A DNA stretch of 35,502 nucleotides, taken from IMG/VR virus record IMGVR_UViG_3300018475_000067; one strand, given 5' to 3'. Position 1 is the stretch's first letter. Every line of letters begins with the position of its first letter. Both the position numbers and the translations under genes were made by a program. Below are positions 2,642 to 35,502 of this stretch, one piece after another. Below the pieces are notes generated by a model. The model was not told the origin of the DNA and ran no database searches. It saw nothing but the letters and a program-made list of their open reading frames with translations. Origin of the DNA: a virus.

Positions 2642-3859
2642 TTATCGTGTTGCATTTCGTGTTGCATTGGTAAAATTTTCGTACTCTTTCCTGCTCTCTT
2701 CACAGTCAGTTTTATCAAATAAAGTGAGCCATGCATTATATTTTTCATCTGTGACTTTGGGGGTGAAAAATTCGTTTTCAAAATAATTATCTATTGTATT
2801 GTCTACCTTTATCCTTTCAGAATCATATACCTGCATATAGGTTCCCTGCATTACTTTTGGAGAACTCCAACCACCACGATCCATAGCGTATTCCGTAGGA
2901 ATGGATAAAAAGGACATGACAGAAGCATTGACATGCCTCAGATCATGAAAGGACATATGTGGTAAATTATTTTTTTCTAACAGATAAACAAAACGATTTG
3001 CTACTGCCTTACCACTTAATTCTACAAGTCTGTCCCCTTCTACTTTGTCAATTAATTCCCTTATGTATGGTGGAATGCGATGCATTCGGTTTCTTTTTTT
3101 ATTCTTTGCTATATTCTTTTCAATTTCTCCATCTTTCGTGTGTACTACAACTTTATCAATGTAAATGTAATCACCTTTGATAGAAGAAGATTTTGTAAGT
3201 CCTTTTATTTCAGACATAGTAAATGAAAGCCACATAGCCAGAAGAACCGGTAACTCTATTTCAGTTCCTTTTACCATATCAAAAATCACTTTAGGAGAAG
3301 ATAATTCATGTACCGGAGCAACGTGTGATGGAAGAGTAACATTTATCAGGAACTGAGGGTTATATTTTTTTATTACGGTAGAAATCAGTCCCCATTCATT
3401 ACGGACAGTCTTGGCAGATATAGGCTTACCTTTACTTCGCTTTGATTTTGATATTCGGCCGCACTCTTCGTTAATGGCTTTCTGTAATATTGTATTGTCT
3501 AGTCTTTTTATATTTAAGCCCATAATAGACTGAAAACCATTGTCCCTTATAGTTTCATACCCTTCAATAGTTTTAGGGGACTCTACGGCTCTGATAGAAG
3601 CTATATAAGTATTAATACCATCCATGATAGTCATTTCATTAGGATTTACTTTATAGGCTTCCTGTACCTGCATTTTTAATGCTTTGGCTTCTTCCATAGT
3701 AGGAGCAGTTACAGATTCATATTTTCTTTTCTTTTTCACTTTTCCATTTTCATCCAGAACCGGCTTTCCATTTTCATCCAGTACATCAACCATACCGACA
3801 TATACTTGCAATCTTTTAGAACCACTTGGAAGAGTGTTCTTTTGCTTTCTTTTTGCCAT
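2642..3859 (-). CDS. int: Tyrosine recombinase (phage integrase)
   Basis: 405 aa. C-terminal FHDLRHVNAS...RGGWSS...GTYMQVY matches the R-H-R-Y catalytic signature. Lies adjacent to attP. Confidence 0.9.
   Translation of the reverse strand: MAKRKQKNTLPSGSKRLQVYVGMVDVLDENGKPVLDENGKVKKKRKYESVTAPTMEEAKALKMQVQEAYKVNPNEMTIMDGINTYIASIRAVESPKTIEGYETIRDNGFQSIMGLNIKRLDNTILQKAINEECGRISKSKRSKGKPISAKTVRNEWGLISTVIKKYNPQFLINVTLPSHVAPVHELSSPKVIFDMVKGTEIELPVLLAMWLSFTMSEIKGLTKSSSIKGDYIYIDKVVVHTKDGEIEKNIAKNKKRNRMHRIPPYIRELIDKVEGDRLVELSGKAVANRFVYLLEKNNLPHMSFHDLRHVNASVMSFLSIPTEYAMDRGGWSSPKVMQGTYMQVYDSERIKVDNTIDNYFENEFFTPKVTDEKYNAWLTLFDKTDCEESRKEYENFTNATRNATR
2645..2669 (+). repeat. Two tandem CGTGTTGCATT units (right-arm copy of the 2428 repeat), inside the last codons of int
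   Basis: The units are cgtgttgcattt and cgtgttgcattg. On the minus strand they encode the Int C-terminus NATRNATR. Confidence 0.45.
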
Positions 3860-4027: not shown

Positions 4028-5042
4028 ATGTGAATCTTGCTTTTAACAATTTCTGAATCCGATCTAAGGTATTATTAGGAAGCCCGAACACTTCATAAAC
4101 AGATTTACCATTAAAAAGAATATTGTTTTGTTCGTAAGGTATAAATAGTGTATAGAGCTCTCTGTAAAATCCTGTTAATAAATAGGAATCATTTAATAAG
4201 ATTAAAATTACTAAAATAACAGAGAATAAATCATTTTGTCCCAAGCGAGAGTTATACTCGTATTCTTTTAAATTACCAAGAGAAAGCAATATCGCGGCTT
4301 TCTTGGGAAGGATTGGTAATTGCATAATACTAAAAGTTCTATTGCCATGTGCTATTTTATTTCGATATTCTTTTATTAAACTTAATGCTTTAATAAAAAA
4401 TTCTTTACGTTCATCAATAGTTAATGCTTCAGAAGATAAAAATTGAGAACAAATATCGGATTTATGTATTCCTTTTAGTATGGTATACCATTCGATACTT
4501 AATCCAAAAGGTATATTGGTAGTAATAATCCATGGTGGAATATGATTTTTTGTATTTCGGTAATGAATTAAACTTGGATTATTACGTTGGTTTGTAATGC
4601 ATTCTTTTATTTTACGAAGAATGGTATCGCGTTTACCGGTTGAATTACTATAATAACGATTGTATAAATAATCATCAGGATTATTATTGCTCATATCATT
4701 CCAATCGGTGTATACTCCATAGTTTTCAGAAATCAAATAGGAAATTCGTGATTTTAAGGATTTTTCAATATAAATAATATATTTAAAAAGAATAGTATTT
4801 AAACTGGTGTCGATGGAATGTAATGTGTATAGTTCTTCAAAACGAGTACCTTCTATAAATTTTTCAGAATTAGGAAGTTGTAAAAAAGTATTTTTATATC
4901 CATTTACAATAGAATAATATGAAAAATTTTGAAGCGCCATTTTAGTAAAGGATTCGTCTGCAATTATAATATTCCGGCTTTTCATAATTTCAATCATTTG
5001 TTCATAGGTTTTAAATGGTTTGTCATAAGTGATAATTGTCAT
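4026..5042 (-). CDS. Abi_2 family (AbiD/AbiF-like) abortive-infection protein
   Basis: N-terminal KPFKTYEQMIEIMKSRNIIIADE...LQNFSYYSIVNGY matches the Abi_2 family signature. Its position between int and cI is typical of a moron (accessory gene insert). Confidence 0.75.
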   Translation of the reverse strand: MTIITYDKPFKTYEQMIEIMKSRNIIIADESFTKMALQNFSYYSIVNGYKNTFLQLPNSEKFIEGTRFEELYTLHSIDTSLNTILFKYIIYIEKSLKSRISYLISENYGVYTDWNDMSNNNPDDYLYNRYYSNSTGKRDTILRKIKECITNQRNNPSLIHYRNTKNHIPPWIITTNIPFGLSIEWYTILKGIHKSDICSQFLSSEALTIDERKEFFIKALSLIKEYRNKIAHGNRTFSIMQLPILPKKAAILLSLGNLKEYEYNSRLGQNDLFSVILVILILLNDSYLLTGFYRELYTLFIPYEQNNILFNGKSVYEVFGLPNNTLDRIQKLLKARFT

Positions 5043-11404: not shown

Positions 11405-11468
11405 AAGAAAAATGTGGCAGTAGTCTTTGCGGACTCTGCCACAAACAAAAAAAGAAAGAAGGTATCGG

Positions 11469-12404
11469 ATGTCAGGAATACCCAAAGTAGGAATCGATTA
11501 TGCAGGCTGGGCGGTGGACATCTTTGACAATGATACCAAAATTGACAAATTACTGGATTCCAAAGGCTGGATAGGATTTAGTGTGTATTTCTTTTTGTGT
11601 ATGAAGGCCTACGGAACGGAAGGATATTTTTATAAATGGTGCTATGACGATTGTGCATCGACGGCTCGAAAGATGGGCAGCGGCATCAGTGCCAGTACGG
11701 TAAAAGAAACCGTGGACTACTGCTTGCAAATTAGTCTCTTTGACAAGAGGAGGTTTGTGGAGTGGGGAATTTTAACTTCAAAAGGTATTCAGCGGCGGTA
11801 CTGGAACGTGGTTCGTAACCGCCGTGTAAAAAAAGTATATTTGGAATTTTGGTTGCTTGGAGACCATGAGTGTTCAGGCTTAGTTAAAGTCAACCTAAAA
11901 GAGCCGGTGACGGATGCAGAAAGCCATTTGCAAAGTGCAAATGAGGATGTGCAGATGGGAAATGCTAATAAAGTAAAGTATAGTAAAGTAAATAATAATA
12001 TCGTTGCACCTGCAAAGCAGGGCAAGGATGATAAGGAGAAAATGCCAACAGATTTTGAGTTAAAGTGTGTGGATTATTTAATACAGTGTGTACTTTCTGA
12101 TTTTCCAAATCAAAAGGTTCCAAAAAGTTTAAAAGAGAAGGGAAAGTGGACAGTGCATATTAAGAGAATGATGGAAATAGATAACATTACACCGTCAGAT
12201 ATATGGAATACACTGGTATGGACGATGAAAGATTCCTTTTGGAGAACCAATATCCGCAGTACGAAAAAGTTCCGGGAAAAATATGCAACATTGTATTTGC
12301 AAAGTAAGCAAAGAAGAAATACTTCCGGAAACAAATTCAATACTTTTGAAAATCAGAGGGAATATGATTATGAAGCACTGGAAAGGGAATTGTTGGCAAA
12401 TTAG
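11469..12404 (+). CDS. DUF4373 (Lin1244/Lin1753-like) replisome-organiser / DnaD-like protein
   Basis: N-terminal IDYAGWAVDIFDNDTKIDKLLDSKGWIGFSVYFFLCMKAYGTEGYFY matches the DUF4373 pattern. Confidence 0.6.
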   Translation: MSGIPKVGIDYAGWAVDIFDNDTKIDKLLDSKGWIGFSVYFFLCMKAYGTEGYFYKWCYDDCASTARKMGSGISASTVKETVDYCLQISLFDKRRFVEWGILTSKGIQRRYWNVVRNRRVKKVYLEFWLLGDHECSGLVKVNLKEPVTDAESHLQSANEDVQMGNANKVKYSKVNNNIVAPAKQGKDDKEKMPTDFELKCVDYLIQCVLSDFPNQKVPKSLKEKGKWTVHIKRMMEIDNITPSDIWNTLVWTMKDSFWRTNIRSTKKFREKYATLYLQSKQRRNTSGNKFNTFENQREYDYEALERELLAN

Positions 12405-12413
12405 GAGAAGAGG

Positions 12414-14420
12414 ATGGAATTAGACTGGTATAAAAAAGTCAGGTATGAGGACAAAAAAGAACTTGCGAAAGAAAGTCTGACAAAAATGGTAAGTTCTTTT
12501 GTGGCAGCAGGTTACTGGATCAGGAGCATCTGGGAAGATAAAGAATGTGAAAGCGAAGGATATGGAAGTATCTGGGAAATGGCTGAAAAAGAATTTGGAT
12601 TGAAAAAGAGTGAAGCATCCAGGGCTATCAGCATGAATAAAAAATATTCTGTGGATGGAAATTCACCGGTCATACTGGAAAGATACGTCATGTATAACAA
12701 AAGCCAGCTGCAGGAGATGTTAACCATGACAGAGGAACAGCTGGAGCAGGTAACTGTGGACATGAAAGTACAGGAACTGCGGCAGCTAAAAAGAGCAGGG
12801 GCAACACCGGAACAGTTACGTATGTTGAAAGAATTGCTTGCTGACTGGGTGAAAAGTGCATATGTAGAGATTTATCGCAGTGTGCAACAAGGCAAGGAGA
12901 TTATGGAAAGTATCGGGGAAATACTGAATGATGACGTTCCTGTGAAAAAAGGAGATAAAGTATTTTTTACGGGAGAGGATGTGGATGAACTGGTAGAACG
13001 TACTACCGGGGAAGTTCTGGCGAAGTATTCCAAAGGCATGGCGGTTTCCATTATTTTGGAAGAATACTGTAAGTTACAGGAGTTACGAAAAATCAAAAAG
13101 AAACCGGAGATAAGAGGACTTATGGATGATCCATACTGCAGAGAATGCGGGACACCATTAGACAGTCCGGAGCATGGTAAAAATCCATCTGTGATTTGCT
13201 CCTGGTGCGGACAGGCTGTGGATTGGAGTGATTATTCCGTGGAAGAGTCTGTTGCGACGTCGCAAGAACCAGTAATTACTGGAACGGAAGCGATTTTAGA
13301 GGCAGAAACTATTGAAAAAGATTTGGAAGTGTTTCAGGAACCGGCTGAGGATGTGACTGAGGTGCTGATAGAAGCGGAAATTGTGGAAGAAATTGAAGCA
13401 GATGAGGAAGAATGTGCAGAAGTTTTCGCATTCGAAGTGCTGGACAGTGATGAAGAAGCAGAAAGTATTATTGATGGAGAATTTCGGGAAATTTCAATGG
13501 AAGTAATTGGAGAAGAAGAGGTATCTGTTTATGGCTTGCCTAAAACAGTATATCCGGAAGGCAGCAGTATTTCTACTGTAGGTTGTGGGCATAAGTATAA
13601 TTGTTTCAGTTGTGCCCAGGAATGTGACATGCGGCAGGAAAAGCGATACTGCAGGGAAGCAACATTAGGAAGTCCGTTTTCTTGTACAACTATGAATGTT
13701 CTGGAATTGTTGAAAGAGGAATTTGCAGAGGTATGTCAGTTTGTCAATTATGAGAGGGCTGAGTATACTGCCGGAAGTAAGGAACCTGTTCCTTGTTGTA
13801 AAAAATGTCAGGTATCAGATTGTGGATACCGATGTGGAAGGTCTGTGTATGTAAAAACAGATACAAAGGAAGTAACAGAACCGGAAGAAACCACAATGGC
13901 AGCAGTAGAGGAAAGTGAACTGATGCAGATAAAGAAGGTTTTGGAAAAAGAAAATGAGCTGTTGGCGGAATATCTGAAAATTGATGATTTACCAGTATTT
14001 ACTGTAAAAAGACAGAAAATCATTGTAGGAGCTCTTGCAAATATGGTCTGTGAACTGGAAGAGATGGAACAGAAAACAGAACCGGTAGAACAGCCGGAAC
14101 TTCCGATTTTGAAAAATAATGACCAGAGACAGGAATTTATTGCAGATTATGAAAACTGGCCGGTATGGATGGAGCAGCCATTAACTGGTGAGAAATATTA
14201 CCGGTATGAGTTTGAAAACGGCGCCGCTTTTGTAGTGAAAGCATATTTTCACAAATGCTTTGATATTAATATTCGAGGGAAATGGGAAGACAGGTATAAA
14301 GATGGCTGGGGAGCTGAGGAATATTACATCATGACGGAAGGAAAGCATTTCAAGGATTGTCTGACAAATAAAAGCTGTATGATTGAGTTTTTGAAGAATT
14401 TGCAGAAGGAGAAAAAATGA
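12414..14420 (+). CDS. Large hypothetical protein (668 aa) with CxxC pairs and an acidic low-complexity core
   Basis: CRECGTPL...CSWCGQ zinc-ribbon-like motif, an E/D-rich stretch (residues ~290-380) and a Cys-rich segment. Confidence 0.6.
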   Translation: MELDWYKKVRYEDKKELAKESLTKMVSSFVAAGYWIRSIWEDKECESEGYGSIWEMAEKEFGLKKSEASRAISMNKKYSVDGNSPVILERYVMYNKSQLQEMLTMTEEQLEQVTVDMKVQELRQLKRAGATPEQLRMLKELLADWVKSAYVEIYRSVQQGKEIMESIGEILNDDVPVKKGDKVFFTGEDVDELVERTTGEVLAKYSKGMAVSIILEEYCKLQELRKIKKKPEIRGLMDDPYCRECGTPLDSPEHGKNPSVICSWCGQAVDWSDYSVEESVATSQEPVITGTEAILEAETIEKDLEVFQEPAEDVTEVLIEAEIVEEIEADEEECAEVFAFEVLDSDEEAESIIDGEFREISMEVIGEEEVSVYGLPKTVYPEGSSISTVGCGHKYNCFSCAQECDMRQEKRYCREATLGSPFSCTTMNVLELLKEEFAEVCQFVNYERAEYTAGSKEPVPCCKKCQVSDCGYRCGRSVYVKTDTKEVTEPEETTMAAVEESELMQIKKVLEKENELLAEYLKIDDLPVFTVKRQKIIVGALANMVCELEEMEQKTEPVEQPELPILKNNDQRQEFIADYENWPVWMEQPLTGEKYYRYEFENGAAFVVKAYFHKCFDINIRGKWEDRYKDGWGAEEYYIMTEGKHFKDCLTNKSCMIEFLKNLQKEKK

Positions 14421-14962
14421 ATTACTTTGAATTAAAAATAACCGAAGAACAAAGAATAAATGAATTTAAGCAAATTACCAAGGGAGTATTTACAGAAAAA
14501 CAAGCAGGGAAGCTGATAGAAATGGGATATTTCATGGTACCGGCATCTTTAACACATCACGGAACACAGTCGGGAGACCTTTATCATCATAGTAAACTGA
14601 TTTATTTGCAGTTAAAGGAATACACGGAAAAACTGTATCTGGAGTGGAAAAATGAAAGAAGTCCCATGGTGGTGGCATTCTTACATGATTTATGCAAGGC
14701 AGATGATTATGTTTTGAAAGACGGGGCATATGTTGGGAATAGAGAAATGCTTTTAAGTGGCCATGGAGAAAAGTCAGTTATTATGGCACTGCAATTGTTC
14801 CCGGATCTGACAGACGAAGAAATCATGTGCATCCGGTATCATATGGGAGCCTATGAAGGACAGGAAAAGTGGAGAACACTGGGAAATGCCATAAAGAATT
14901 ATCCAAACATCCTATGGGTACATCAGGCGGATATGATAGCCAGTCAGGTATGGAAGGTATAA
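14417..14962 (+). CDS. HD-domain phosphohydrolase
   Basis: The series HH...AFLHDLCK...GHGEKS...IRYHMG...HQADMIAS is an H..HD..H..D pattern. Confidence 0.65.
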   Translation: MNYFELKITEEQRINEFKQITKGVFTEKQAGKLIEMGYFMVPASLTHHGTQSGDLYHHSKLIYLQLKEYTEKLYLEWKNERSPMVVAFLHDLCKADDYVLKDGAYVGNREMLLSGHGEKSVIMALQLFPDLTDEEIMCIRYHMGAYEGQEKWRTLGNAIKNYPNILWVHQADMIASQVWKV

Positions 14963-15012: not shown

Positions 15013-15630
15013 ATGAGTAAAGCATTAGAGTTAGCGAAAGAATTATTAAAGGTTTTGAATGAGGAAAATGCAGCAAAAAAGAATATTGAGCAGTACCAGC
15101 TTTCTACATTGGAACCAGAAGAAGTTTTTAAAGTCGGGGAACATGATTTTATTGTACTGGAACAGATGGAAGGACAGACCGCAGTTATTTCAAAAGAGTT
15201 TATGGCAAAGGGTAAGAAATTTGATGAAGATACCAGAGATTACAATACATCCGCTATCAGGAAGTTTATTGAAAGTGAAATTCAACCGGTAATCGAAGCG
15301 GCAGTAGGAAGTGAAAATCTTGTGGAACATGAAGTGGAACTTACTTCCGTGGATATGCAGAAAGAAATTAATAATTGCAAATGTAAAGTTAGATTGATTA
15401 CTTTTGATGAAGCACGTAAATATAACGATTTGATTGCTGATAAAAATATTGGTGACTGGTGGTGGACATGTACACCGTGGAGCACTAAGGAACGCGGATG
15501 GGAGTACTCGCTCGCCGTTGTTTGCCCGTCCGGCTATTTCAGCGACTGTAACTGCAATGACGACAGCGGTGTTCGCCCTGTTTGTATCTTAAAATCTAAT
15601 ATCTTTGTATCTAAAGGAGGAGAGAAATAA
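15013..15630 (+). CDS. DGR variable protein 1 (DUF6273 / C-type-lectin-fold-like)
   Basis: C-terminus WWWTCTPWS...VVCPSGYFSDCNCNDDSGVRPVCI. VR1 lies in the last ~40 codons. Confidence 0.85.
   Translation: MSKALELAKELLKVLNEENAAKKNIEQYQLSTLEPEEVFKVGEHDFIVLEQMEGQTAVISKEFMAKGKKFDEDTRDYNTSAIRKFIESEIQPVIEAAVGSENLVEHEVELTSVDMQKEINNCKCKVRLITFDEARKYNDLIADKNIGDWWWTCTPWSTKERGWEYSLAVVCPSGYFSDCNCNDDSGVRPVCILKSNIFVSKGGEK
15517..15579 (+). repeat. DGR variable region VR1
   Basis: A 63-nt match to the TR with 11 differences, all at TR adenines. Confidence 0.9.
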
Positions 15631-16220
15631 TGGCTAAAAATCTGGAACAGAGAGTGGAAGAACTTGAAAAAATCATAAAGAAAATGCAGGCAAAGAATTT
15701 GAAATTAAAAAAAGATTTAGCAGTAGGAGATACATTTGAACTTATTGGACTTAAATGGAAAATCTTAGACATTGCAGAGCAGGGGTATAAATGTATTGCA
15801 GAAAAACTTCCGGAAAATAAAAAGTTTGGAAATAACAATGATTGGAAAGAAAGCAGTATTCGGGAATATTTGAACGGAGAGTTTTACGAGAAATTAGAGG
15901 AAGTAATAGGGGAAGATAACATTATTTCTTTTGAAAGAAGTTTGTTGTCCCTAGATGGTCAGACAGAATATGGAACTTGTGAAGATAAGGTGTCCATTGT
16001 CAGTCTGGATGAATACAGACAGTATAGAGCATTGCTTCCAAATGAAGAATATTACTGGTGGACTCTTACACCGGATACTACAAAATGTAATGGAAATGAG
16101 TCGTGGATCCTCGTTGTTTGCCCGTCCGGCGATATCAGCGGCAATAACTTCAATATCAACGGCGGTGTTCGCCCTGTTTGTATCTTTTCATCTGCAATCT
16201 TTGAATCAGAGGAAGGTTAA
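15630..16220 (+). CDS. DGR variable protein 2 (paralog of target 1)
   Basis: C-terminus YYWWTLTPD...VVCPSGDISGNNFNINGGVRPVCI. VR2 lies near the 3' end. Start overlaps the target 1 stop (TAATG). Confidence 0.85.
   Translation: MAKNLEQRVEELEKIIKKMQAKNLKLKKDLAVGDTFELIGLKWKILDIAEQGYKCIAEKLPENKKFGNNNDWKESSIREYLNGEFYEKLEEVIGEDNIISFERSLLSLDGQTEYGTCEDKVSIVSLDEYRQYRALLPNEEYYWWTLTPDTTKCNGNESWILVVCPSGDISGNNFNINGGVRPVCIFSSAIFESEEG
16113..16175 (+). repeat. DGR variable region VR2
   Basis: A 63-nt match to the TR with 8 differences, all at TR adenines. Confidence 0.9.
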
Positions 16221-16592
16221 ATGGCAGAAACAGATTTAAAAGTAATCTTAAAAGCAAAGGAACTGGCAGAACATACCTTGCGTGTCACATCCAACTGTAA
16301 CCGGTACCCGAAGAAATACAGATTCTCATTAGTGGACAAGATGCAGAATAAGTCACTTGAAATTTATGAACATCTGCATGAAGCTAATCGGACTGATTTG
16401 AGGGAGTATGCAAGGGAACGTTCAGAATTACAGACCAAGGCAATCGCTCACTGTGATGAACTTCTGTTTTACATAGAACTATCCTATAAGCTCAATATCA
16501 TTAATGATAAAAGCATGGGATACTGGTCTAAGATGGTAACAGATATTAAGCATATGGCGATTGCTTGGAGAAGCAAAGATAAAAAGAGATAA
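16221..16592 (+). CDS. avd: DGR accessory variability determinant (Avd-like four-helix-bundle protein)
   Basis: 123 aa, basic and helical. Sits between the target genes and the TR, as in canonical DGRs. Confidence 0.75.
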   Translation: MAETDLKVILKAKELAEHTLRVTSNCNRYPKKYRFSLVDKMQNKSLEIYEHLHEANRTDLREYARERSELQTKAIAHCDELLFYIELSYKLNIINDKSMGYWSKMVTDIKHMAIAWRSKDKKR

Positions 16593-16620
16593 TTATTACA
16601 GGATATCTGATGCATAAACC

Positions 16621-16683
16621 GTTGTTTGCCCGTCCGGCAATATCAACAACAATAACTACAATAACAACAACGGTGTTCGCCCT
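16621..16683 (+). repeat. DGR template repeat (TR)
   Basis: GTTGTTTGCCCGTCCGGC-AATATCAACAACAATAACTACAATAACAACAAC-GGTGTTCGCCCT. Non-coding, with an AAY-rich core holding 20 adenines in 11 codon-equivalents. Confidence 0.9.
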
Positions 16684-16788
16684 ATTCTGTATCATACAGA
16701 CCGGAAGAGTAGGCAACAAGCCGAAATCAGAAAAAGATACAAAAAATCAGATATCCTTCCACTAGGTGGTAAATACAAAGGTATTTTT

Positions 16789-17829
16789 ATGGATAAAGAA
16801 ATAATATGCAGTTTTGAAAATCTTTACAAGGCATACAGACGTGCAAAGTCTGGCAAGGGATGTAATAATAGCTGTGCTAAATTTCAGAACATGAGTCTGG
16901 AAGGAGTACATCTGTTAAAAGAACAGCTTGAAAATCAAACTTATAGGATGAATCCATACAACGAGTTCAAGATATATGAACCAAAGGAAAGAATCATTAA
17001 ATCGTGTTCTTTTAAGGATAAAGTGGTGCAGCATTGTTTGTGTGATGAGATTCTGCATCCGAGGCTGGCAAAGGAATTTGTAAAGACAAATTATGCCGGA
17101 CAAAAAGGGAAAGGAACCCTTTATGGACTGAATAGTCTGAAAGAACAGATGCTAAGTTTTTATGAAATGCATGGTCTTGAAGGTTGGATACTGAAATGTG
17201 ATATTACAAAGTTCTTTTACCAGATAGACCATGAAATATTAAAAGATATTGTGGATTATCACTTTATGGATAATTACACGAAATGGCTGAACCATTTATT
17301 TATAGACAGCACAGAAGGATTGGGACTTCCGTTAGGAAATCAGGTGGCACAGGTTTATGCATTGTTAATGCTTAATGGCATGGACCATATGATTATAGGT
17401 GAATTGGGAATAAGTCTTTATGGGAGATACATGGATGATTTTTACCTGATACACCATGATAAAGAATATTTAAAAGAATGTTTGGTGCGGATACAGGAAA
17501 TGGTAAGCAGTCTTGGACTTTGCCTTAATGGAAAAACTCAGATAGTACCGTTTAGATGCGGAGTAGGTTTTCTAGGGTTTCACCATTATGTAACAGAGAA
17601 TGGGAAATATATAAGGAAATTGAAAGGTGAAAATAAACGGAAAATCAAAAAGAAAGTGACCAGATGGGTTAGAGCTGTACAATCCGGAAAAATGACAGAA
17701 AAGAAATTTTATGAAAAGTATAATGCGTGGAAAAATCATGCTTTACATGGAAACTGTATTAAACTTTGTCATTCCATGGATTTATATGTAAATAGTTTGA
17801 TAAAAATAAGTAGAAAGGATGTTTTATGA
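16789..17829 (+). CDS. DGR reverse transcriptase
   Basis: 346 aa. Carries the NYAGQKGKG, LGNQVAQ (DGR-type [ILV]GxxxSQ-like) and YGRYMDDFYLI (YxDD) motifs. Confidence 0.9.
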   Translation: MDKEIICSFENLYKAYRRAKSGKGCNNSCAKFQNMSLEGVHLLKEQLENQTYRMNPYNEFKIYEPKERIIKSCSFKDKVVQHCLCDEILHPRLAKEFVKTNYAGQKGKGTLYGLNSLKEQMLSFYEMHGLEGWILKCDITKFFYQIDHEILKDIVDYHFMDNYTKWLNHLFIDSTEGLGLPLGNQVAQVYALLMLNGMDHMIIGELGISLYGRYMDDFYLIHHDKEYLKECLVRIQEMVSSLGLCLNGKTQIVPFRCGVGFLGFHHYVTENGKYIRKLKGENKRKIKKKVTRWVRAVQSGKMTEKKFYEKYNAWKNHALHGNCIKLCHSMDLYVNSLIKISRKDVL

Positions 17830-19549: not shown

Positions 19550-19599
19550 AAGATGGACGGATTTTTCATGTCAAATGTGCTATTATGGTATCATCAAAA

Positions 19600-19631
19600 A
19601 GAGTCAGGGAACAAAAACCTTGGCTCTTTTT
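19600..19631 (+). terminator. Possible intrinsic terminator
   Basis: AGAGTCAGG pairs with CTTGGCTCT (two G-U pairs) and is followed by TTTT. Confidence 0.4.
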
Positions 19632-19652
19632 ATATTCAGAAAGGCAGCAGTC

Positions 19653-19994
19653 ATGAATACCGGAGCAGAAAGATATGGTACCCACCGGGGTGCATTTGAA
19701 AAGAATAAAAAGAAAATAATGGCGACACAAAAGATTTGTGGGATATGTGGAAAGCCGGTTGATTTTGCACAGAAATATCCCAGTCCATTATCGCCTTGTA
19801 TTGACCATATTATTCCAATTGCAAGAGGGGGGCATCCCAGTGATATTGACAATCTGCAATTAGCCCACTGGACCTGTAATCGACAGAAGTCAGACAAGCT
19901 GATAGAAGTGAAGATTTTTGATGAAAAAAGTGAAATTATCAGTAACAGGGTGCTGCCACAATCTATGGATTGGAAGAATTATAAACCAAAGTAA
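19653..19994 (+). CDS. HNH endonuclease (packaging-associated type)
   Basis: CGICGKPV...CIDHIIPIARGGHPSDIDNLQLAHWTCNRQKSDK. Start chosen at the internal ATG 19653. Confidence 0.85.
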   Translation: MNTGAERYGTHRGAFEKNKKKIMATQKICGICGKPVDFAQKYPSPLSPCIDHIIPIARGGHPSDIDNLQLAHWTCNRQKSDKLIEVKIFDEKSEIISNRVLPQSMDWKNYKPK

Positions 19995-20369: not shown

Positions 20370-21638
20370 ATGAGCAATTACAAAGGGATAGTATATCTGA
20401 GAAAAAAGTTAAATCAGAAGAGAGAACGGGTATTAAAAAGATATAAGTATTATGAAATGAAGAATGTGGTAAGAGACTTGAATATCGCAGTTCCGGCAGA
20501 AATAAAAGGATTACATTCCATGCTTGGCTGGTGCGGAAAAGCAGTGGACAGTGTTGCGGATAGATTAATTTTCCGGGAATTTGAAGATGATAATTTTGAT
20601 TTATCAGAAATTTTTCAAATGAATAATCCTGATATTTTTTATGACAGTGCTGTATTATCGGCATTGATTTCTTCCTGTTGTTTTATTTATATTTCAGCAG
20701 ATGAAAGCGGATTTCCCAGACTGCAGGTAATTGATGGAGCAAATGCAACCGGAATATTAGACCCGATTACAGGATTATTAACAGAAGGATATGCAGTTCT
20801 GGAAAAAGATGATAACGAGAATGCGATATTAGAAGCATATTTTCAGAAAGGACAAACAACTTTTATCAGAAAAGGTGTCCGAAATCATCAGGTAGTAAAA
20901 AACAGTGCGCCTTATCCTTTGTTGGTACCAATAATCTATAAACCGGATGCCAGAAGAGTATTTGGACATTCCAGAATCAGCAGAGCATGTATGAGTCTGG
21001 TGGATGCAGCCATAAGGACTGTGAAGCGTTCTGAAGTTTCAGCAGAATTTTATAGTTTCCCACAAAAATACATTACTGGTTTAAGTGAAGATGCAGAAAT
21101 TGCAGATAAATGGAGAGCATCTATGTCCAGTCTGCTGTCATTTACAAAGGATGACGAGGGAGATAGTCCTAAGTTAGGACAATTTACACAGCAGTCTATG
21201 TCACCGTATACAGAACAGCTTCGGACATTCGCGGCACTGTTTGCAGGAGAAACCGGTTTGACTTTGGATGATCTGGGATTTGTTTCTGACAATCCATCCA
21301 GCCAGGAGGCAATAAAAGCATCACATGAAACCTTACGATTAACCGCTAAGAAGGCACAAAGAACCTTCGGAAGCGGTTTTTTAAATGTCGGCTATCTAGC
21401 AGCCTGCGTAAGAGATGATTTTGCTTATCAGAGAAGACAACTTTATCTTACAAAGCCTGTTTGGGAGCCGATTTTTGAACCGGATGCCTCAATGTTATCC
21501 AGTATAGGAGACGGGGCAATTAAGATTAATCAGGCAGTGCCCGGATACTTTAATAAGGATAATCTGAGAAACATTACAGGAATTGAACCAAGTAAGATGG
21601 AACCGGTAACAGTAGTACAGCCGAATCAGGAGGTATAA
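20370..21638 (+). CDS. Portal protein (SPP1 gp6-like)
   Basis: 422 aa, followed by a MuF-type gene. The N-terminal region is typical of SPP1-family portals. Confidence 0.8.
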   Translation: MSNYKGIVYLRKKLNQKRERVLKRYKYYEMKNVVRDLNIAVPAEIKGLHSMLGWCGKAVDSVADRLIFREFEDDNFDLSEIFQMNNPDIFYDSAVLSALISSCCFIYISADESGFPRLQVIDGANATGILDPITGLLTEGYAVLEKDDNENAILEAYFQKGQTTFIRKGVRNHQVVKNSAPYPLLVPIIYKPDARRVFGHSRISRACMSLVDAAIRTVKRSEVSAEFYSFPQKYITGLSEDAEIADKWRASMSSLLSFTKDDEGDSPKLGQFTQQSMSPYTEQLRTFAALFAGETGLTLDDLGFVSDNPSSQEAIKASHETLRLTAKKAQRTFGSGFLNVGYLAACVRDDFAYQRRQLYLTKPVWEPIFEPDASMLSSIGDGAIKINQAVPGYFNKDNLRNITGIEPSKMEPVTVVQPNQEV

Positions 21639-22981
21639 TGGAAGATATTGCACCAAAGTTATTAGAAAAAATACAAAAAGATTTTCAGACTATGTTTGAT
21701 AAGAGTGAAATCATTTCCAAGTTATATGCAAAAGTAAGAGATGGTACCGCTACTTACAAAGAAGCTAATGAGTTCTCTGTTGAGGTAGGGCATATCCTTG
21801 CAAATGCATATGGTAACAACCTTAGTTCTGAAGTTCTTCCGGATGGGAAGATGTATTACAACATTGCTAAGAGAGTTATCCGTCCTACGATGGAAAATAA
21901 TTATCATTTGATTACGGAAGTTACGAAAGAGGTACAAAGGTCTTTAAACAGTGAGGCAGGAATTGGAATAAAGCCAATCATACCGGAATTAAATCAAGAC
22001 CGTATTGACGGAATTCTAAACCGTATTTCCAGTGAAGATATATTTGATGATGTAAAATGGATATTGGGAGAACCGGTAGTCAATTTCAGTCAGAGTATTG
22101 TGGATGATGCTATCAAAGTAAATGCTGAATTTCACGGAAAGGCAGGAATGAAGCCTAAGATTGTTCGTAAAATGGCAGGCAACTGTTGCGAATGGTGTAA
22201 GGCGGTAACAGGTAAATATTTCTATCCGGATGTACCGCAGGATGTTTACAGAAGACATCAGAGGTGCAGATGTACGGTGGATTATGTCCCGGGAGATGGA
22301 AAAGTTCAGAATGTACATACAAAGCAGTGGCGGAAGGAAGATGGCAGTAACATAAGGTTAGAGAAAAGAAAGGAACAGCATTATTTACCAGTCAAAGGAA
22401 GTGGAAAATTAAGTTTGACGGATAGAAAGATGGGGATTATAAATCTAATAGAGATAGATGGATATTCAAAAGTATATGTTGAAGAAGGGGTAAAGATTAA
22501 ACCTAAAGCATTACATACCATAACTAAAAATATTGATGAAGCAATAGATTTTTATAGAGGAGATAAAAGTAGAAAACCAATAATAGCAGTTGTTGCTATG
22601 AAAAATTTAAATGGTGCACTTGGAAAATATGATTGTGTACAAAATGTAATATACATTGCTCCGGATACAGGAGATGCAAAAATGTTGAGTGTGTTTTTTG
22701 CAATGGATAAAAATGTAGCAATAGGGAGTACGGAGTATCATGAAACATGGCATTGGATGCAAGCACAAGGTTACAAAGGAACGATTACAGAAGCTAACAG
22801 GAATGTAGAATATATGCCTTGGCTAGTAGAAAAATGTAAAAAAAATATTGTTTCTTTAGGGATAAATGAGTATAATGTTAATGAAATATCATCATATGCT
22901 GCTAAGGCGTTTGTTTGGGAAAGATATGATGAAGTGGAGGCCGAATACTATACATTGAAGTGCTTAAAAAGAGGGAGATAA
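21638..22981 (+). CDS. MuF/SPP1 gp7-like minor head protein with a C-terminal ~200-aa HExxH-containing extension
   Basis: The head-morphogenesis domain ends with CCEWCKAVTGKYFYPDVPQDVYRRHQRCRCTVDY. The extension carries HETWH at 22739-22753. Confidence 0.75.
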   Translation: MEDIAPKLLEKIQKDFQTMFDKSEIISKLYAKVRDGTATYKEANEFSVEVGHILANAYGNNLSSEVLPDGKMYYNIAKRVIRPTMENNYHLITEVTKEVQRSLNSEAGIGIKPIIPELNQDRIDGILNRISSEDIFDDVKWILGEPVVNFSQSIVDDAIKVNAEFHGKAGMKPKIVRKMAGNCCEWCKAVTGKYFYPDVPQDVYRRHQRCRCTVDYVPGDGKVQNVHTKQWRKEDGSNIRLEKRKEQHYLPVKGSGKLSLTDRKMGIINLIEIDGYSKVYVEEGVKIKPKALHTITKNIDEAIDFYRGDKSRKPIIAVVAMKNLNGALGKYDCVQNVIYIAPDTGDAKMLSVFFAMDKNVAIGSTEYHETWHWMQAQGYKGTITEANRNVEYMPWLVEKCKKNIVSLGINEYNVNEISSYAAKAFVWERYDEVEAEYYTLKCLKRGR

Positions 22982-23553: not shown

Positions 23554-23574
23554 AAGCAGAAAGTGAGGAGCAGT

Positions 23575-25014
23575 ATGGCAGAACCGCGAATTGGTCGCCA
23601 GACTCCCACACAATCCGTTGTATTACCTTACTATGTAACAAAAGGGCAGGAAGCAATCGATTATTATAATAATTCCGGAAGAACTGCACAGCAGTGGCAG
23701 GAACTTTTATTAAGTGATATTTTGGCTGTGAATGAAGAAGGACTTTGGGTACATACCAAATTCGGTTATTCCGTGCCACGAAGAAATGGAAAGAATGAGA
23801 TTGCAGCAATCCGGGAGGTGTTTGGACTTTTAAAGGGGGAAAGAATACTTCATACAGCCCTCAGAACTACAACCAGTAGTGCTGCATCCAAACGATTGTC
23901 AGCTATTCTGAATGGAATGGGATATTGCGAAATCGCAAGACCAAAAGCTGGAGAGGAATATAAGAAAGCATACACCTACTCCAAACAATTTGGTCTTGAA
24001 AGAATTGTAATCCTGGATGAAGGAGGAGGCAGTTGTGATTTTAGAACCCGTTCCTCCAAAGGTGGTCTGGGAGAAGGTTTCGATTTGCTGGTTATTGATG
24101 AAGCACAAGAATATACTGACGATCAGGAGTCAGCACTGAAATATGTGGTAACAGACTCTAAAAATCCACAAACAATCTTTTGTGGAACACCACCTACACC
24201 GGTAAGCTCCGGTACCGTATTTACTAAATTAAGAGTTTCTATTTTATCAGGAGGAACGGTAAATGCAGGTTGGGCGGAATGGTCAGTGGAAAAACATTCT
24301 AATCCAAGAGATAAAGAATTGTGGTATGAAACCAATCCATCACTGGGAACGATTTTTACAGAAAGGTCTGTTACAGATGAAATTGGAACAGATGATGTAG
24401 ATTTCAATATTCAGAGACTGGGATTGTGGATTAAGTATAATCAGAAATCTGCTATCAGCAAAGTGGAATGGCAGGAATTAAAGGCAGAGAAATTGCCGGA
24501 GTTATCCGGAGCATTATTTGCAGGTATCAAATATAGTCATGAAGGTGGGAATGTAGCATTGTCCATAGCGGTCAAAACCAAAGATAAAAAGATTTTTGTA
24601 GAAACTATTGACTGTCGGGAAGTCAGAGCCGGAAATTATTGGATAATTGACTTTTTAAGAAATGCAGCCATTGAAAAAATAGTGGTAGATGGTGCCAATG
24701 GACAGCAGATTTTAGCAACTGAAATGAAAGAGGCAAAATTAAAAACACCGTTACTTCCTACGGTAAAAGAAATTATTGTGGCAAATTCCACCTTTGAACA
24801 GGGAATTTTTCAGGCAAATATTGTCCATAGCGGTCAACCTTCTGTAGAACAGGTAGTTGGAAATTGCGAGAAGAGAGCCATTGGAGCTAATGGAGGTTTT
24901 GGATATAAAGCTATGCAGGAGGATATTGAGATTGCAATTTTGGACAGTCTGGCATTAGCCTACTGGGTATGTAGTACAAGTAAGGAAAGAAAAAAACAAA
25001 AAGTAAGCTATTAA
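23575..25014 (+). CDS. terL: Terminase large subunit
   Basis: Walker A-like PRRNGKNE, Walker B LLVIDEAQ, and a C-terminal nuclease-type region. ATG 23575 follows a GTGAGGAG SD sequence. Confidence 0.85.
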   Translation: MAEPRIGRQTPTQSVVLPYYVTKGQEAIDYYNNSGRTAQQWQELLLSDILAVNEEGLWVHTKFGYSVPRRNGKNEIAAIREVFGLLKGERILHTALRTTTSSAASKRLSAILNGMGYCEIARPKAGEEYKKAYTYSKQFGLERIVILDEGGGSCDFRTRSSKGGLGEGFDLLVIDEAQEYTDDQESALKYVVTDSKNPQTIFCGTPPTPVSSGTVFTKLRVSILSGGTVNAGWAEWSVEKHSNPRDKELWYETNPSLGTIFTERSVTDEIGTDDVDFNIQRLGLWIKYNQKSAISKVEWQELKAEKLPELSGALFAGIKYSHEGGNVALSIAVKTKDKKIFVETIDCREVRAGNYWIIDFLRNAAIEKIVVDGANGQQILATEMKEAKLKTPLLPTVKEIIVANSTFEQGIFQANIVHSGQPSVEQVVGNCEKRAIGANGGFGYKAMQEDIEIAILDSLALAYWVCSTSKERKKQKVSY

Positions 25015-34665: not shown

Positions 34666-35502
34666 ATGGTACAGTTGATTATTGACGAAGTAACAGGGAA
34701 AGTTTTGGGATTTAATACAATTATTCCAACCATCACAAAAGACATTATTATCATAGACGACGAGGAGTTTGAGAAACTACGAAATGAGAAGGATTTCAAG
34801 AAACTGTATTATGAAGATGGAATAATGGTAGAAAAAGAAGAAAAGGACAGTGAAAACGAGGAAATAGACGAACTGGAAAAACAGGAGTTTAGTTATCGTG
34901 AAAAAGTAGCAAAAGAACAGAAGATTTTCATGGATTGTGTGTTGGAAGGAAAGTCTACGGAAGAGGCAGCAGCCACCGTAAGAATGAATCGGCAGCAGTT
35001 GGAGGAGATTTTACAAAGAAAAAAAGATTACTGGTCCGGGTATGAAGAAAAAAGACAAAAGAAAGTAGTAGAAAAATTTGAAAAGGAAGAAAAGGAACTG
35101 TCTAATAAATATTTTCTTTCCGTTGTAACAGCTGTTCGTGATGAAAATGATTATATAGAAGAATGGCTGGATTATCACATTGAAACAATGGGTGTGGAAC
35201 ATTTCTACATTTATGATAATGAGTCCGTTGTCTCAGTTAGAGAATATTTGGAGAGGATCAAATATCGATATTTGGACAAGCTGACAATTATCCCGTGGAA
35301 AACTAGCACACATACCCAGCAGGATACTTGTAACGACTGGCTGCAGAACTATGGACCGGAAACGAAATGGTTTATATGTATGGATGTGGATGAGTTCATT
35401 CATATCAAAGAACAGAATAAAACTTTGAAAGAGTTTTTGGAAGAAAATGCTGCATATTCCAGTGTGAAATGTTTGTGGAAACACTTTACAGCAAACGGAC
35501 AG
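34666..35502 (+). CDS. Glycosyltransferase (GT92/GT2-like), N-terminal part. Runs off the window and continues at 1-486 (399 aa total).
   Basis: No stop before the window end. YFLSVVTAVRDENDYIEEWLDYHIETMGVEHFYIYDNES is a GT92/GT2-type nucleotide-sugar-binding motif. DVDEF acts as the DxD motif. Confidence 0.7.
   Translation, partial: MVQLIIDEVTGKVLGFNTIIPTITKDIIIIDDEEFEKLRNEKDFKKLYYEDGIMVEKEEKDSENEEIDELEKQEFSYREKVAKEQKIFMDCVLEGKSTEEAAATVRMNRQQLEEILQRKKDYWSGYEEKRQKKVVEKFEKEEKELSNKYFLSVVTAVRDENDYIEEWLDYHIETMGVEHFYIYDNESVVSVREYLERIKYRYLDKLTIIPWKTSTHTQQDTCNDWLQNYGPETKWFICMDVDEFIHIKEQNKTLKEFLEENAAYSSVKCLWKHFTANGQ
35380..35502 (+). repeat. Terminal overlap identical to 1-123
   Basis: Direct comparison of the two ends. 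Confidence 0.95.

Follow-up and report, generated by a model that had tools for sequence, protein, structure and literature searches.

A diversity-generating retroelement with one template repeat and two tandem DUF6273 target genes in a phage genome from IMG/VR

The IMG/VR virus record IMGVR_UViG_3300018475_000067, a stretch of 35,502 nt that we call the window throughout, carries a short repeat whose near copies lie at the 3' ends of two neighbouring genes, next to a gene for a reverse transcriptase (RT). Is this repeat the template repeat (TR) of a diversity-generating retroelement (DGR), from which two variable regions (VRs) are rewritten by mutagenic retrohoming, and does the element operate in nature? 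The locus has the anatomy of a DGR, and its VRs vary in natural populations at positions where the TR has an adenine. We consider it very likely that the DGR is functional and that it resides in a complete temperate, siphophage-like genome of ~35.4 kb from a Lachnospiraceae host. The claim of the initial annotation, that mutagenic retrohoming proceeds from a single template into two genes, is therefore taken to be correct, on the strength of the adenine-specific mismatches and the DGR-type RT.

One template, two variable copies and their enzymes

The cassette spans 15013-17829 and reads target 1, target 2, avd (accessory variability determinant), TR, RT (Table 1), so that the TR does lie between an Avd-like gene (16221-16592) and the RT gene (16789-17829). 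The initial annotation had placed the TR at 16621-16683, VR1 at 15517-15579 and VR2 at 16113-16175. These coordinates are right, as are the codon blocks that it quoted for the three copies; inclusion of a shared leading C makes each of them 64 nt long. Its counts stood for VR2 (8 differences from the TR) but not for VR1, which differs at 10 positions and not 11, for a total of 18 and not 19. Its assertion that the mismatches fall exclusively on TR adenines holds for all of them (10 + 8, 18/18). With 20 A in the 63 nt of the TR, the probability that random placement would put every mismatch on an A is 1.4e-6 for VR1 and 3.3e-5 for VR2. The flanks it described as identical are so, letter for letter, over 18 nt on the 5' side and 12 nt on the 3' side in TR, VR1 and VR2, after which both VRs continue with GTTTGTATCTT and the TR with ATTCTGTATCAT, as quoted.

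Read in the frame of the VRs, the TR core is AAT ATC AAC AAC AAT AAC TAC AAT AAC AAC AAC, that is, nine AAY codons plus ATC and TAC. All 20 TR adenines occupy codon position 1 or 2, and mutagenesis at A therefore cannot reach a stop codon; the theoretical repertoire computed from the 11 VR codons is 6.2e11 peptides per target. The TR adenines are conserved across relatives. A 51-aa open reading frame (ORF) runs across the TR (16610-16765), but its frame differs and its ATG is missing in most relatives, and thus the TR is reasonably called non-coding, as had been proposed. A scan of both strands of the window that tolerated any base at the A positions gave no further TR-like copy.

The RT carries the motifs LGNQVAQ and YMDD that were first noted in it. 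Its best match in the PDB is 8ub7_A (E=9.4e-36, residues 6-299), which we recognised as the Bordetella enzyme bRT by the numbering of D138, I181, G182, Q187, D215/216, R74, F66 and I76, which agrees with that of Handa et al. In the alignment to bRT, residues K29, F66, R74, I76, D138, Q187 and D215/216 (YMDD) are identical, while I181 is replaced by Leu and S186 by Ala. Group II RTs in the PDB match with 4e-10 and retron-type RTs with 2e-9, the latter 26 orders of magnitude weaker than bRT. The RT also matches phrog_1423 (E=1.5e-100), and its tblastn matches are the DGR phages nd12, nd4, Toutatis and Lelie together with Bordetella phages. Judged by profile and homology scores, its affinity is to the RT of the Bordetella phage DGR rather than to the RTs of group II introns or retrons, and it lies far under the cut-off of each curated group II, retron and DRT model. 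A group II intron was rejected as a candidate: the protein is short (346 aa), it scores 103.7 bits with TIGR04416, for which the cut-off is 300, and Rfam gave no group II intron in the window. A retron was rejected as well, with 36.6 bits for the St85 RT model (cut-off 235) and no match to an Rfam retron RNA in the window. No Rfam family at the gathering threshold and no tRNA was found in the window.

The two targets share 36% identity, and the start of target 2 overlaps the stop of target 1. Target 1 matches Pfam DUF6273 with 30.3 bits (cut-off 23.5) and phrog_9958 with E=2.8e-31; target 2 does so with 45.6 bits and E=4.6e-43. Read from the sequence, their N-termini are charged helices and not signal peptides. 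An AlphaFold2 model of target 2 (mean pLDDT 71.7, pTM 0.70) has an N-terminal helix followed by a mixed alpha/beta domain. When this model was searched against the PDB with Foldseek, the only credible match was the Thomasclavelia ramosa IgA peptidase 9qa6 (E=1.6e-3), whose N-terminal domain is annotated DUF6273, and in the Foldseek viral library several of the best matches were annotated DUF6273 proteins of uncultured phages. Searches of PDB sequences with Avd, with the targets and with a target-family profile returned nothing significant. By these comparisons the RT, Avd and the targets are assigned to their DGR families, and a C-type-lectin fold for the targets is suggested by analogy with published work (PMC10743442; bioRxiv 10.1101/2024.10.15.618418).

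Variation in natural populations and across the family

When the Avd protein was looked up by exact sequence, six independent contigs (L041-L046) came to light in samples from ENA and JGI. In these near-identical contigs the TR is the same in 6/6 while the VRs differ. Over 6,372 nt, L041 differs from the window at 8 positions: 7 in VR1, every one of them (7/7) at a TR-adenine site, 0 in VR2 and 1 elsewhere. L042 and L045 each show 14 differences in VR1, 0 in VR2 and 5 elsewhere, L044 shows 14, 1 and 3, and L043 shows 14 in VR1 and 12 in VR2 with 1 elsewhere in 4,281 nt. Altogether the near-identical contigs hold 3 nucleotide alleles of each VR, and 18/19 of the variable positions are at TR adenines. 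Protein clusters at 90% identity contain 4 VR alleles for target 1 and 5 for target 2, with variation mostly in the 11 VR codons. The comparison of related genomes that the initial annotation had proposed (6 contigs, ~40 relatives) thus finds variation at TR-adenine positions and almost nowhere else. This population pattern is as expected from recent, repeated mutagenic homing from TR to VR, and the element has evidently been active in nature.

Two features of these contigs lie outside the VRs. At nt 17563, within the RT gene, the window has G and all six contigs have A; because of this difference the exact RT protein of the window is not recorded elsewhere, and an exact look-up of it gave no other record. 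In L043 (1-2410) the cassette, with its identical Avd, adjoins a gene for lysozyme and one on the minus strand that encodes 383 aa. The gene call for target 1 in this contig is 5'-truncated (173 aa), and this points to a recombination junction that lies within target 1 or shortly before it.

To describe the wider family we used forty IMG/VR contigs whose RTs are 67-82% identical to that of the window. Nearly all of them have the same cassette layout with two VRs. In 63 distinct TR/VR pairs from ~40 related phages, 652/682 mismatches (96%) fall on a template A, which corresponds to a mismatch rate of 54% at A and of 0.7-1.7% at C, G and T. The changes at A are predominantly A>G (334) and A>T (249), with fewer A>C (69). 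L034 (1642-3424) has three tandem VR-bearing small DUF6273 genes and one TR, and L029 (443-3412) likewise has three such genes and one TR, with one gene set apart from the others by ~1.7 kb. In L030 the RT motif is interrupted by an in-frame TAG (GLPLGN*VAQ, ~4535-4564), yet this contig carries two VRs with A-specific mismatches; it could be a recently inactivated DGR or the product of a sequencing error. A search with the flanks alone (GTTGTTTGCCCGTCCGGC, 33 N, GGTGTTCGCCCT) gave no match in metagenome or genome contigs, although the same syntax works on the retrieved loci, and a nucleotide search of deposited phages returned one weak fragment only (MT839962, 66% identity).

The RNA around the template and the 3' boundary of transfer

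We aligned the region between the avd stop codon and the start of the RT gene from 17 diverse relatives and folded it with RNAalifold. The TR is bracketed by a 12-bp helix, between a strand just after avd and a strand in the 105-nt spacer that separates TR and RT. Compensatory double changes occur in 9/12 pairs, 99% of the cells are paired, and 0/500 shuffles reach the observed covariation score. All 12 bp of the helix are preserved in 40 copies that bear a TR; at least 15 different helix sequences occur among them, and the helix always sits 9 nt before the TR. One base past the helix starts a small stem-loop with compensatory changes in 3/4 stem pairs, followed by TAAATACAAA, which is nearly invariant, as is TAAATACAAAGG. 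When the partner strand was slid by 1-3 columns, pairing of helix and stem-loop dropped from 95% to 32-51%. Covariation support for the TR-bracketing helix, as read from this alignment, is strong. Within the spacer, GATACA can pair with TGTATC (16688-16693) just 3' of the TR; this pairing is present in 98% of cells, against 20-65% when slid. A GTTGTT/AACAAC helix in the TR was disregarded, being invariant and inside the template. Promoter and terminator scans gave fewer matches than shuffled sequence and were uninformative.

In the cryo-electron microscopy structure of the Bordetella DGR ribonucleoprotein, a TR:Sp (spacer) template:primer duplex ends in the priming adenosine and is followed by 2 nt, an avd:Sp 'cPRT Stop' duplex, a stem-loop and A-minor adenosines (bioRxiv 10.1101/2023.10.23.563531). 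Stop-like duplexes with a mean of 13 bp were predicted in 207/278 Avd-containing DGRs in the same work. The predicted RNA layout in the window matches this 'cPRT Stop' architecture. By analogy, A16741 is a candidate cis-priming nucleotide, corresponding to A56 of the Bordetella DGR RNA spacer (Sp A56), and the helix probably ends cDNA synthesis just upstream of the TR.

The 3' limit of information transfer can be read from the family. Beyond CGCCC, the TRs continue CGCCC-ATTC-TGTATC-A(C/T) and every VR continues CGCCC-N(G/T)TT-TGTATC-TT; these differences are fixed at non-A positions across ~40 relatives and are never copied into the VRs. The A directly after CGCCC is still copied, since the VRs vary there (G, T or A). 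The C three bases beyond that A is never copied, since every VR has T. Transfer therefore ends within ~3 nt, which in the window corresponds to ~16683-16687. At 16683-16684 the TR of the window has one extra base, reading CGCCC-T-ATTC where the TRs of relatives read CGCCC-ATTC, and its own VRs are without it. A copy of this base would put the VRs out of frame, which fits transfer that stops on its 5' side. As a sequence pattern, the distinction drawn earlier between an IMH (initiation of mutagenic homing) in the VR flanks and an IMH* in the TR is thus supported by flank differences that are fixed family-wide; an IMH function of the VR flank is suggested by analogy with the Bordetella phage DGR.

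Proposed mechanism, competing explanations and known relatives

The mechanism that we propose is as follows. The avd-TR-spacer transcript, possibly extending into RT, would fold so that the TR lies in a loop closed by the 12-bp helix. From the spacer, cDNA would then be cis-primed by the RT-Avd complex, with A16741 at the end of the GATACA:TGTATC duplex as the predicted primer and a start at ~C16687. Synthesis would proceed 5'-ward across the 64-nt TR, with misincorporation opposite its 20 adenines, and would halt at the bracketing helix. At the 3' end of each of the two tandem paralogous genes, the mutagenised cDNA would replace the 64 nt to which it is homologous, and the IMH-like flank, present in the VRs only, would set the direction. 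Each such replacement may rewrite 11 codons in a C-terminal loop of a small DUF6273 (C-type-lectin-like) protein, with up to ~6e11 variants per target and no stop.

Several observations weigh against parts of this scheme. One VR1 allele, shared by the four contigs L042-L045, has changed a TR C to A (AAC to AAA, equivalent to window position 15543), which is either a rare misincorporation at a base other than A or an ordinary mutation. The evidence for activity consists of assembled contigs compared between samples. The RT reads LGNQVAQ, with Ala in place of Ser186 of bRT (IGSLTSQ); this 'AQ' variant is common to the whole RT family, which mutates adenines regardless. Avd models are the top NCBIfam and Pfam matches of Avd, and its scores are under the curated cut-offs of both (DivGenRetAVD NF033474 41.5 of 80 bits, bAvd 21.3 of 40 bits). 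The template:primer duplex is invariant and so has no covariation support, and for the 3' end of the TR RNAalifold prefers another, equally invariant pairing; the alternatives (TR 3' end with GAGTAGGC...GCCG, hairpins CTGT/ACAG and GGC/GCC) are themselves invariant and cannot be ranked against TGTATC:GATACA. DNA folding against shuffled sequence showed no hairpin or cruciform 3' of either VR (z-scores +1.1 and +0.1). As to the targets, the VR loop of the target 2 model (residues 151-176) is of low confidence, neither Mtd nor TvpA was retrieved by Foldseek with this model, and both targets are encoded outside the virion module.

The last of these points bears on what the targets do. From the literature, a receptor-binding or ligand-binding role for the phage is the default expectation. 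The alternative is that the DGR is real but that its targets are not receptor-binding proteins of the virion and instead are early- or middle-region proteins whose site of action is in or on the cell during infection or lysogeny, possibly as variable binders for counter-defence or superinfection exclusion, or as adaptors. The target genes have replication genes on one side and late regulators on the other and are ~13 kb away from the tail genes, and a homolog, FP_Toutatis gp24 (NC_047915, 5049-5696), is surrounded by genes for methyltransferases, a regulator, a replication initiator and antiterminator Q. The targets show a short N-terminal helix only and no recognisable virion-anchoring domain, and the papers that assign a receptor-binding role present it as a hypothesis (PMC10743442; bioRxiv 10.1101/2024.10.15.618418; PMC11792537). 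Gene position, however, is weak evidence in mosaic phages, the DUF6273/C-lec domain also occurs in tail-associated DGR targets (Pioen, tentaclins), the targets have a weak PHROG match to 'Hoc-like head decoration', and the N-terminal helix could be an attachment or oligomerisation module. We regard a non-virion role as unlikely, though less so than the other alternatives. Small DUF6273 targets encoded outside the virion module are a recurring and unexplained pattern, seen here and in FP_Toutatis, and if such targets do act away from the virion (for example against host defence or competing phages), phage DGR biology would extend beyond tropism switching.

A second alternative accepts the DGR as once active but holds that it is now inert, the VR differences being frozen history. 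Decay does occur in the family, as the in-frame TAG in the RT motif of L030 indicates. The cassette ORFs of the window, by contrast, are all intact, and its RNA helix is perfect. Moreover, contigs with 1-5 differences in ~4,300 other positions have VRs that differ at 7-14/64 and a TR that is identical, and hence VR turnover is far faster than background divergence. On these sequence comparisons a frozen relic is excluded for practical purposes, and we judge it very improbable. The remaining alternative, that there is no retroelement and that paralogous repeats were diversified by point mutation, selection or gene conversion, can appeal to recombination between tandem paralogs, which is conceivable, but it cannot explain why 96% of 682 mismatches lie on template adenines, why the non-coding copy is invariant or why a DGR-type RT, Avd and a structured RNA are adjacent, and it is effectively refuted.

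The first 123 nt of the window are repeated exactly at 35380-35502, which shows the contig to be a circularly closed, complete assembly of ~35,379 bp. Besides the genes in Table 1 it encodes helix-turn-helix and late-type regulators and major head, major tail, tape measure and distal tail proteins, and a metagenome-assembled genome of Lachnospiraceae is on record with a copy of the target proteins. The phage is temperate and siphovirus-like, and its host is taken to be a gut-type member of the Lachnospiraceae. Upstream of the cassette lies the gene for a protein of 668 aa that is acidic over a long central stretch, contains several clusters rich in Cys and has no Pfam match. The order of the head module is unusual: the portal and minor head protein genes precede the large terminase gene, with an HNH endonuclease gene upstream.

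Table 1. Coordinates of the DGR cassette, its predicted RNA elements and other genes in the window
Feature	Position	Strand	Remarks
TR	16620-16683	+	Non-coding, 20 adenines; 16621-16683 without the shared leading C
VR1	15516-15579	+	64 nt, matches TR; 10 substitutions, each at a TR adenine
VR2	16112-16175	+	64 nt, matches TR; 8 substitutions, each at a TR adenine
Target gene 1	15013-15630	+	205 aa; charged N-terminal helix, then DUF6273 domain; VR in last ~38 codons
Target gene 2	15630-16220	+	196 aa; target 1 paralog, DUF6273 domain; VR in last ~38 codons
avd	16221-16592	+	123 aa; phrog_3206 'Avd protein of DGR' E=5.1e-22
DGR reverse transcriptase	16789-17829	+	346 aa; LPLGNQVAQ, YMDD; lacks maturase and endonuclease domains
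IMH-like 3' flank of VR1, GTTTGTATCTT	15580-15590	+	Common to both VRs and the VRs of ~40 relatives
IMH-like 3' flank of VR2, GTTTGTATCTT	16176-16186	+	Same as VR1 flank
IMH*-like 3' extension of TR, ATTCTGTATCAT	16684-16695	+	Contains TGTATC (16688-16693), predicted template strand
Upstream helix strand, AGGATATCTGAT	16600-16611	+	Perfect complement of 16746-16757; putatively equivalent to the avd strand in the 'cPRT Stop' duplex of Bordetella
Spacer helix strand, ATCAGATATCCT	16746-16757	+	Partner of 16600-16611
Stem-loop CCAC-TAG-GTGG (16759-16769), then A-rich TAAATACAAA	16759-16779	+	Putative counterpart of the cPRT Stop stem-loop and A-minor adenosines
Predicted primer strand GATACA	16736-16741	+	In the spacer; always 4 nt before the Stop duplex
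Integrase	2642-3859	-	
Lin1244-like replication protein	11427-12404		
668-aa protein	12414-14420		Between replication protein and HD hydrolase; C-terminal half matches phrog_15077 (function unknown)
HD-type hydrolase homolog	14417-14962		
HNH endonuclease	19575-19994		Upstream of portal
Portal	20370-21638		
Minor head protein	21638-22981		
Large terminase	23563-25014		

The best-characterised point of comparison is Bordetella phage BPP-1 (mtd-avd-TR-brt), for which the bRT-Avd-RNA structures are those of Handa et al. (bioRxiv 10.1101/2023.10.23.563531, PDB 8ub7 series). The two elements share the order target-avd-TR-RT, adenine-specific mutagenesis from AAY codons, a homologous RT (E=9e-36) with active-site and template-contact residues retained, and an RNA in which upstream and spacer strands form a duplex that is preceded, a few nt away, by a candidate template:primer duplex and followed by a short stem-loop and then adenosines. 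They differ in that BPP-1 has one 381-aa Mtd with beta-prism and beta-sandwich domains, whereas the window has two tandem small DUF6273 targets without these domains. The TR is 64 nt here and 134 nt in BPP-1, the upstream helix strand lies just after the avd stop codon here and inside avd in BPP-1, and 4 nt separate the primer strand from the helix here, against 2 nt there. BPP-1 has a hairpin 3' of the VR and the window does not, Ser186 of bRT is Ala in the window RT, and the probable host of the window phage is Gram-positive.

Among deposited phages, the closest RTs are those of nd12 (49% identity) and nd4 (40%), gut phages whose DGRs have one TR and two C-lec/DUF6273 targets, 'tentaclin' and tgt2 (Baykov et al. 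2023, PMC10743442). As in the window, two VRs share a single TR and DUF6273 carries the VR at its C-terminus; tgt2 is a homolog of the window targets (32% identity) and is larger, 234-294 aa against ~200 aa. The window is without tentaclin, which has an N-terminal VR and Ig domains, and both of its targets are tgt2-like. In nd4 and nd12 tgt2 is 11-12 kb from the RT, whereas in the window the targets are in tandem directly upstream of avd; and nd4 and nd12 are small myoviruses, whereas the window is siphovirus-like, with a major tail protein, a tape measure and no sheath. The Faecalibacterium phages Lelie, CP11 and Toutatis have DGRs with a 'large' and a 'small' DUF6273 target (PMC11792537; bioRxiv 10.1101/2024.10.15.618418). 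The RTs of Toutatis and Lelie are 39% and 38% identical to that of the window, and their small target is homologous to the window targets (27-30% identity) and, like them, is encoded in the early, DNA-metabolism region. Their pair consists of a large target (Hoc-like, with Ig domains) and a remote small one, in contrast to two small adjacent paralogs in the window and up to three in its relatives. Variation at A sites among related genomes has been published for nd4/nd12 and for the Faecalibacterium phages (PMC10743442; PMC11792537; bioRxiv 10.1101/2024.10.15.618418).

Two-target DGRs acting on DUF6273 proteins are thus already published, and the window differs only in arrangement: it has no large or Ig-bearing target, its small paralogs are in tandem upstream of avd, its TR is 64 nt and its phage backbone is another one. 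What our analysis adds is population-level evidence of activity, a mapped 3' boundary of transfer and covariation for the TR-bracketing helix; it adds no new mechanism. With a 64-nt TR and two tiny targets (three in some relatives) beside avd in a complete 35-kb temperate backbone, this compact DGR could serve as a model. Finally, the 'cPRT Stop' helix has been solved only for the Bordetella element, and the ~40 relatives described here give an unusually clear covariation signal for it. This is independent comparative support for the view that the architecture of cis-priming and termination is conserved in the DGRs of Bacillota phages.

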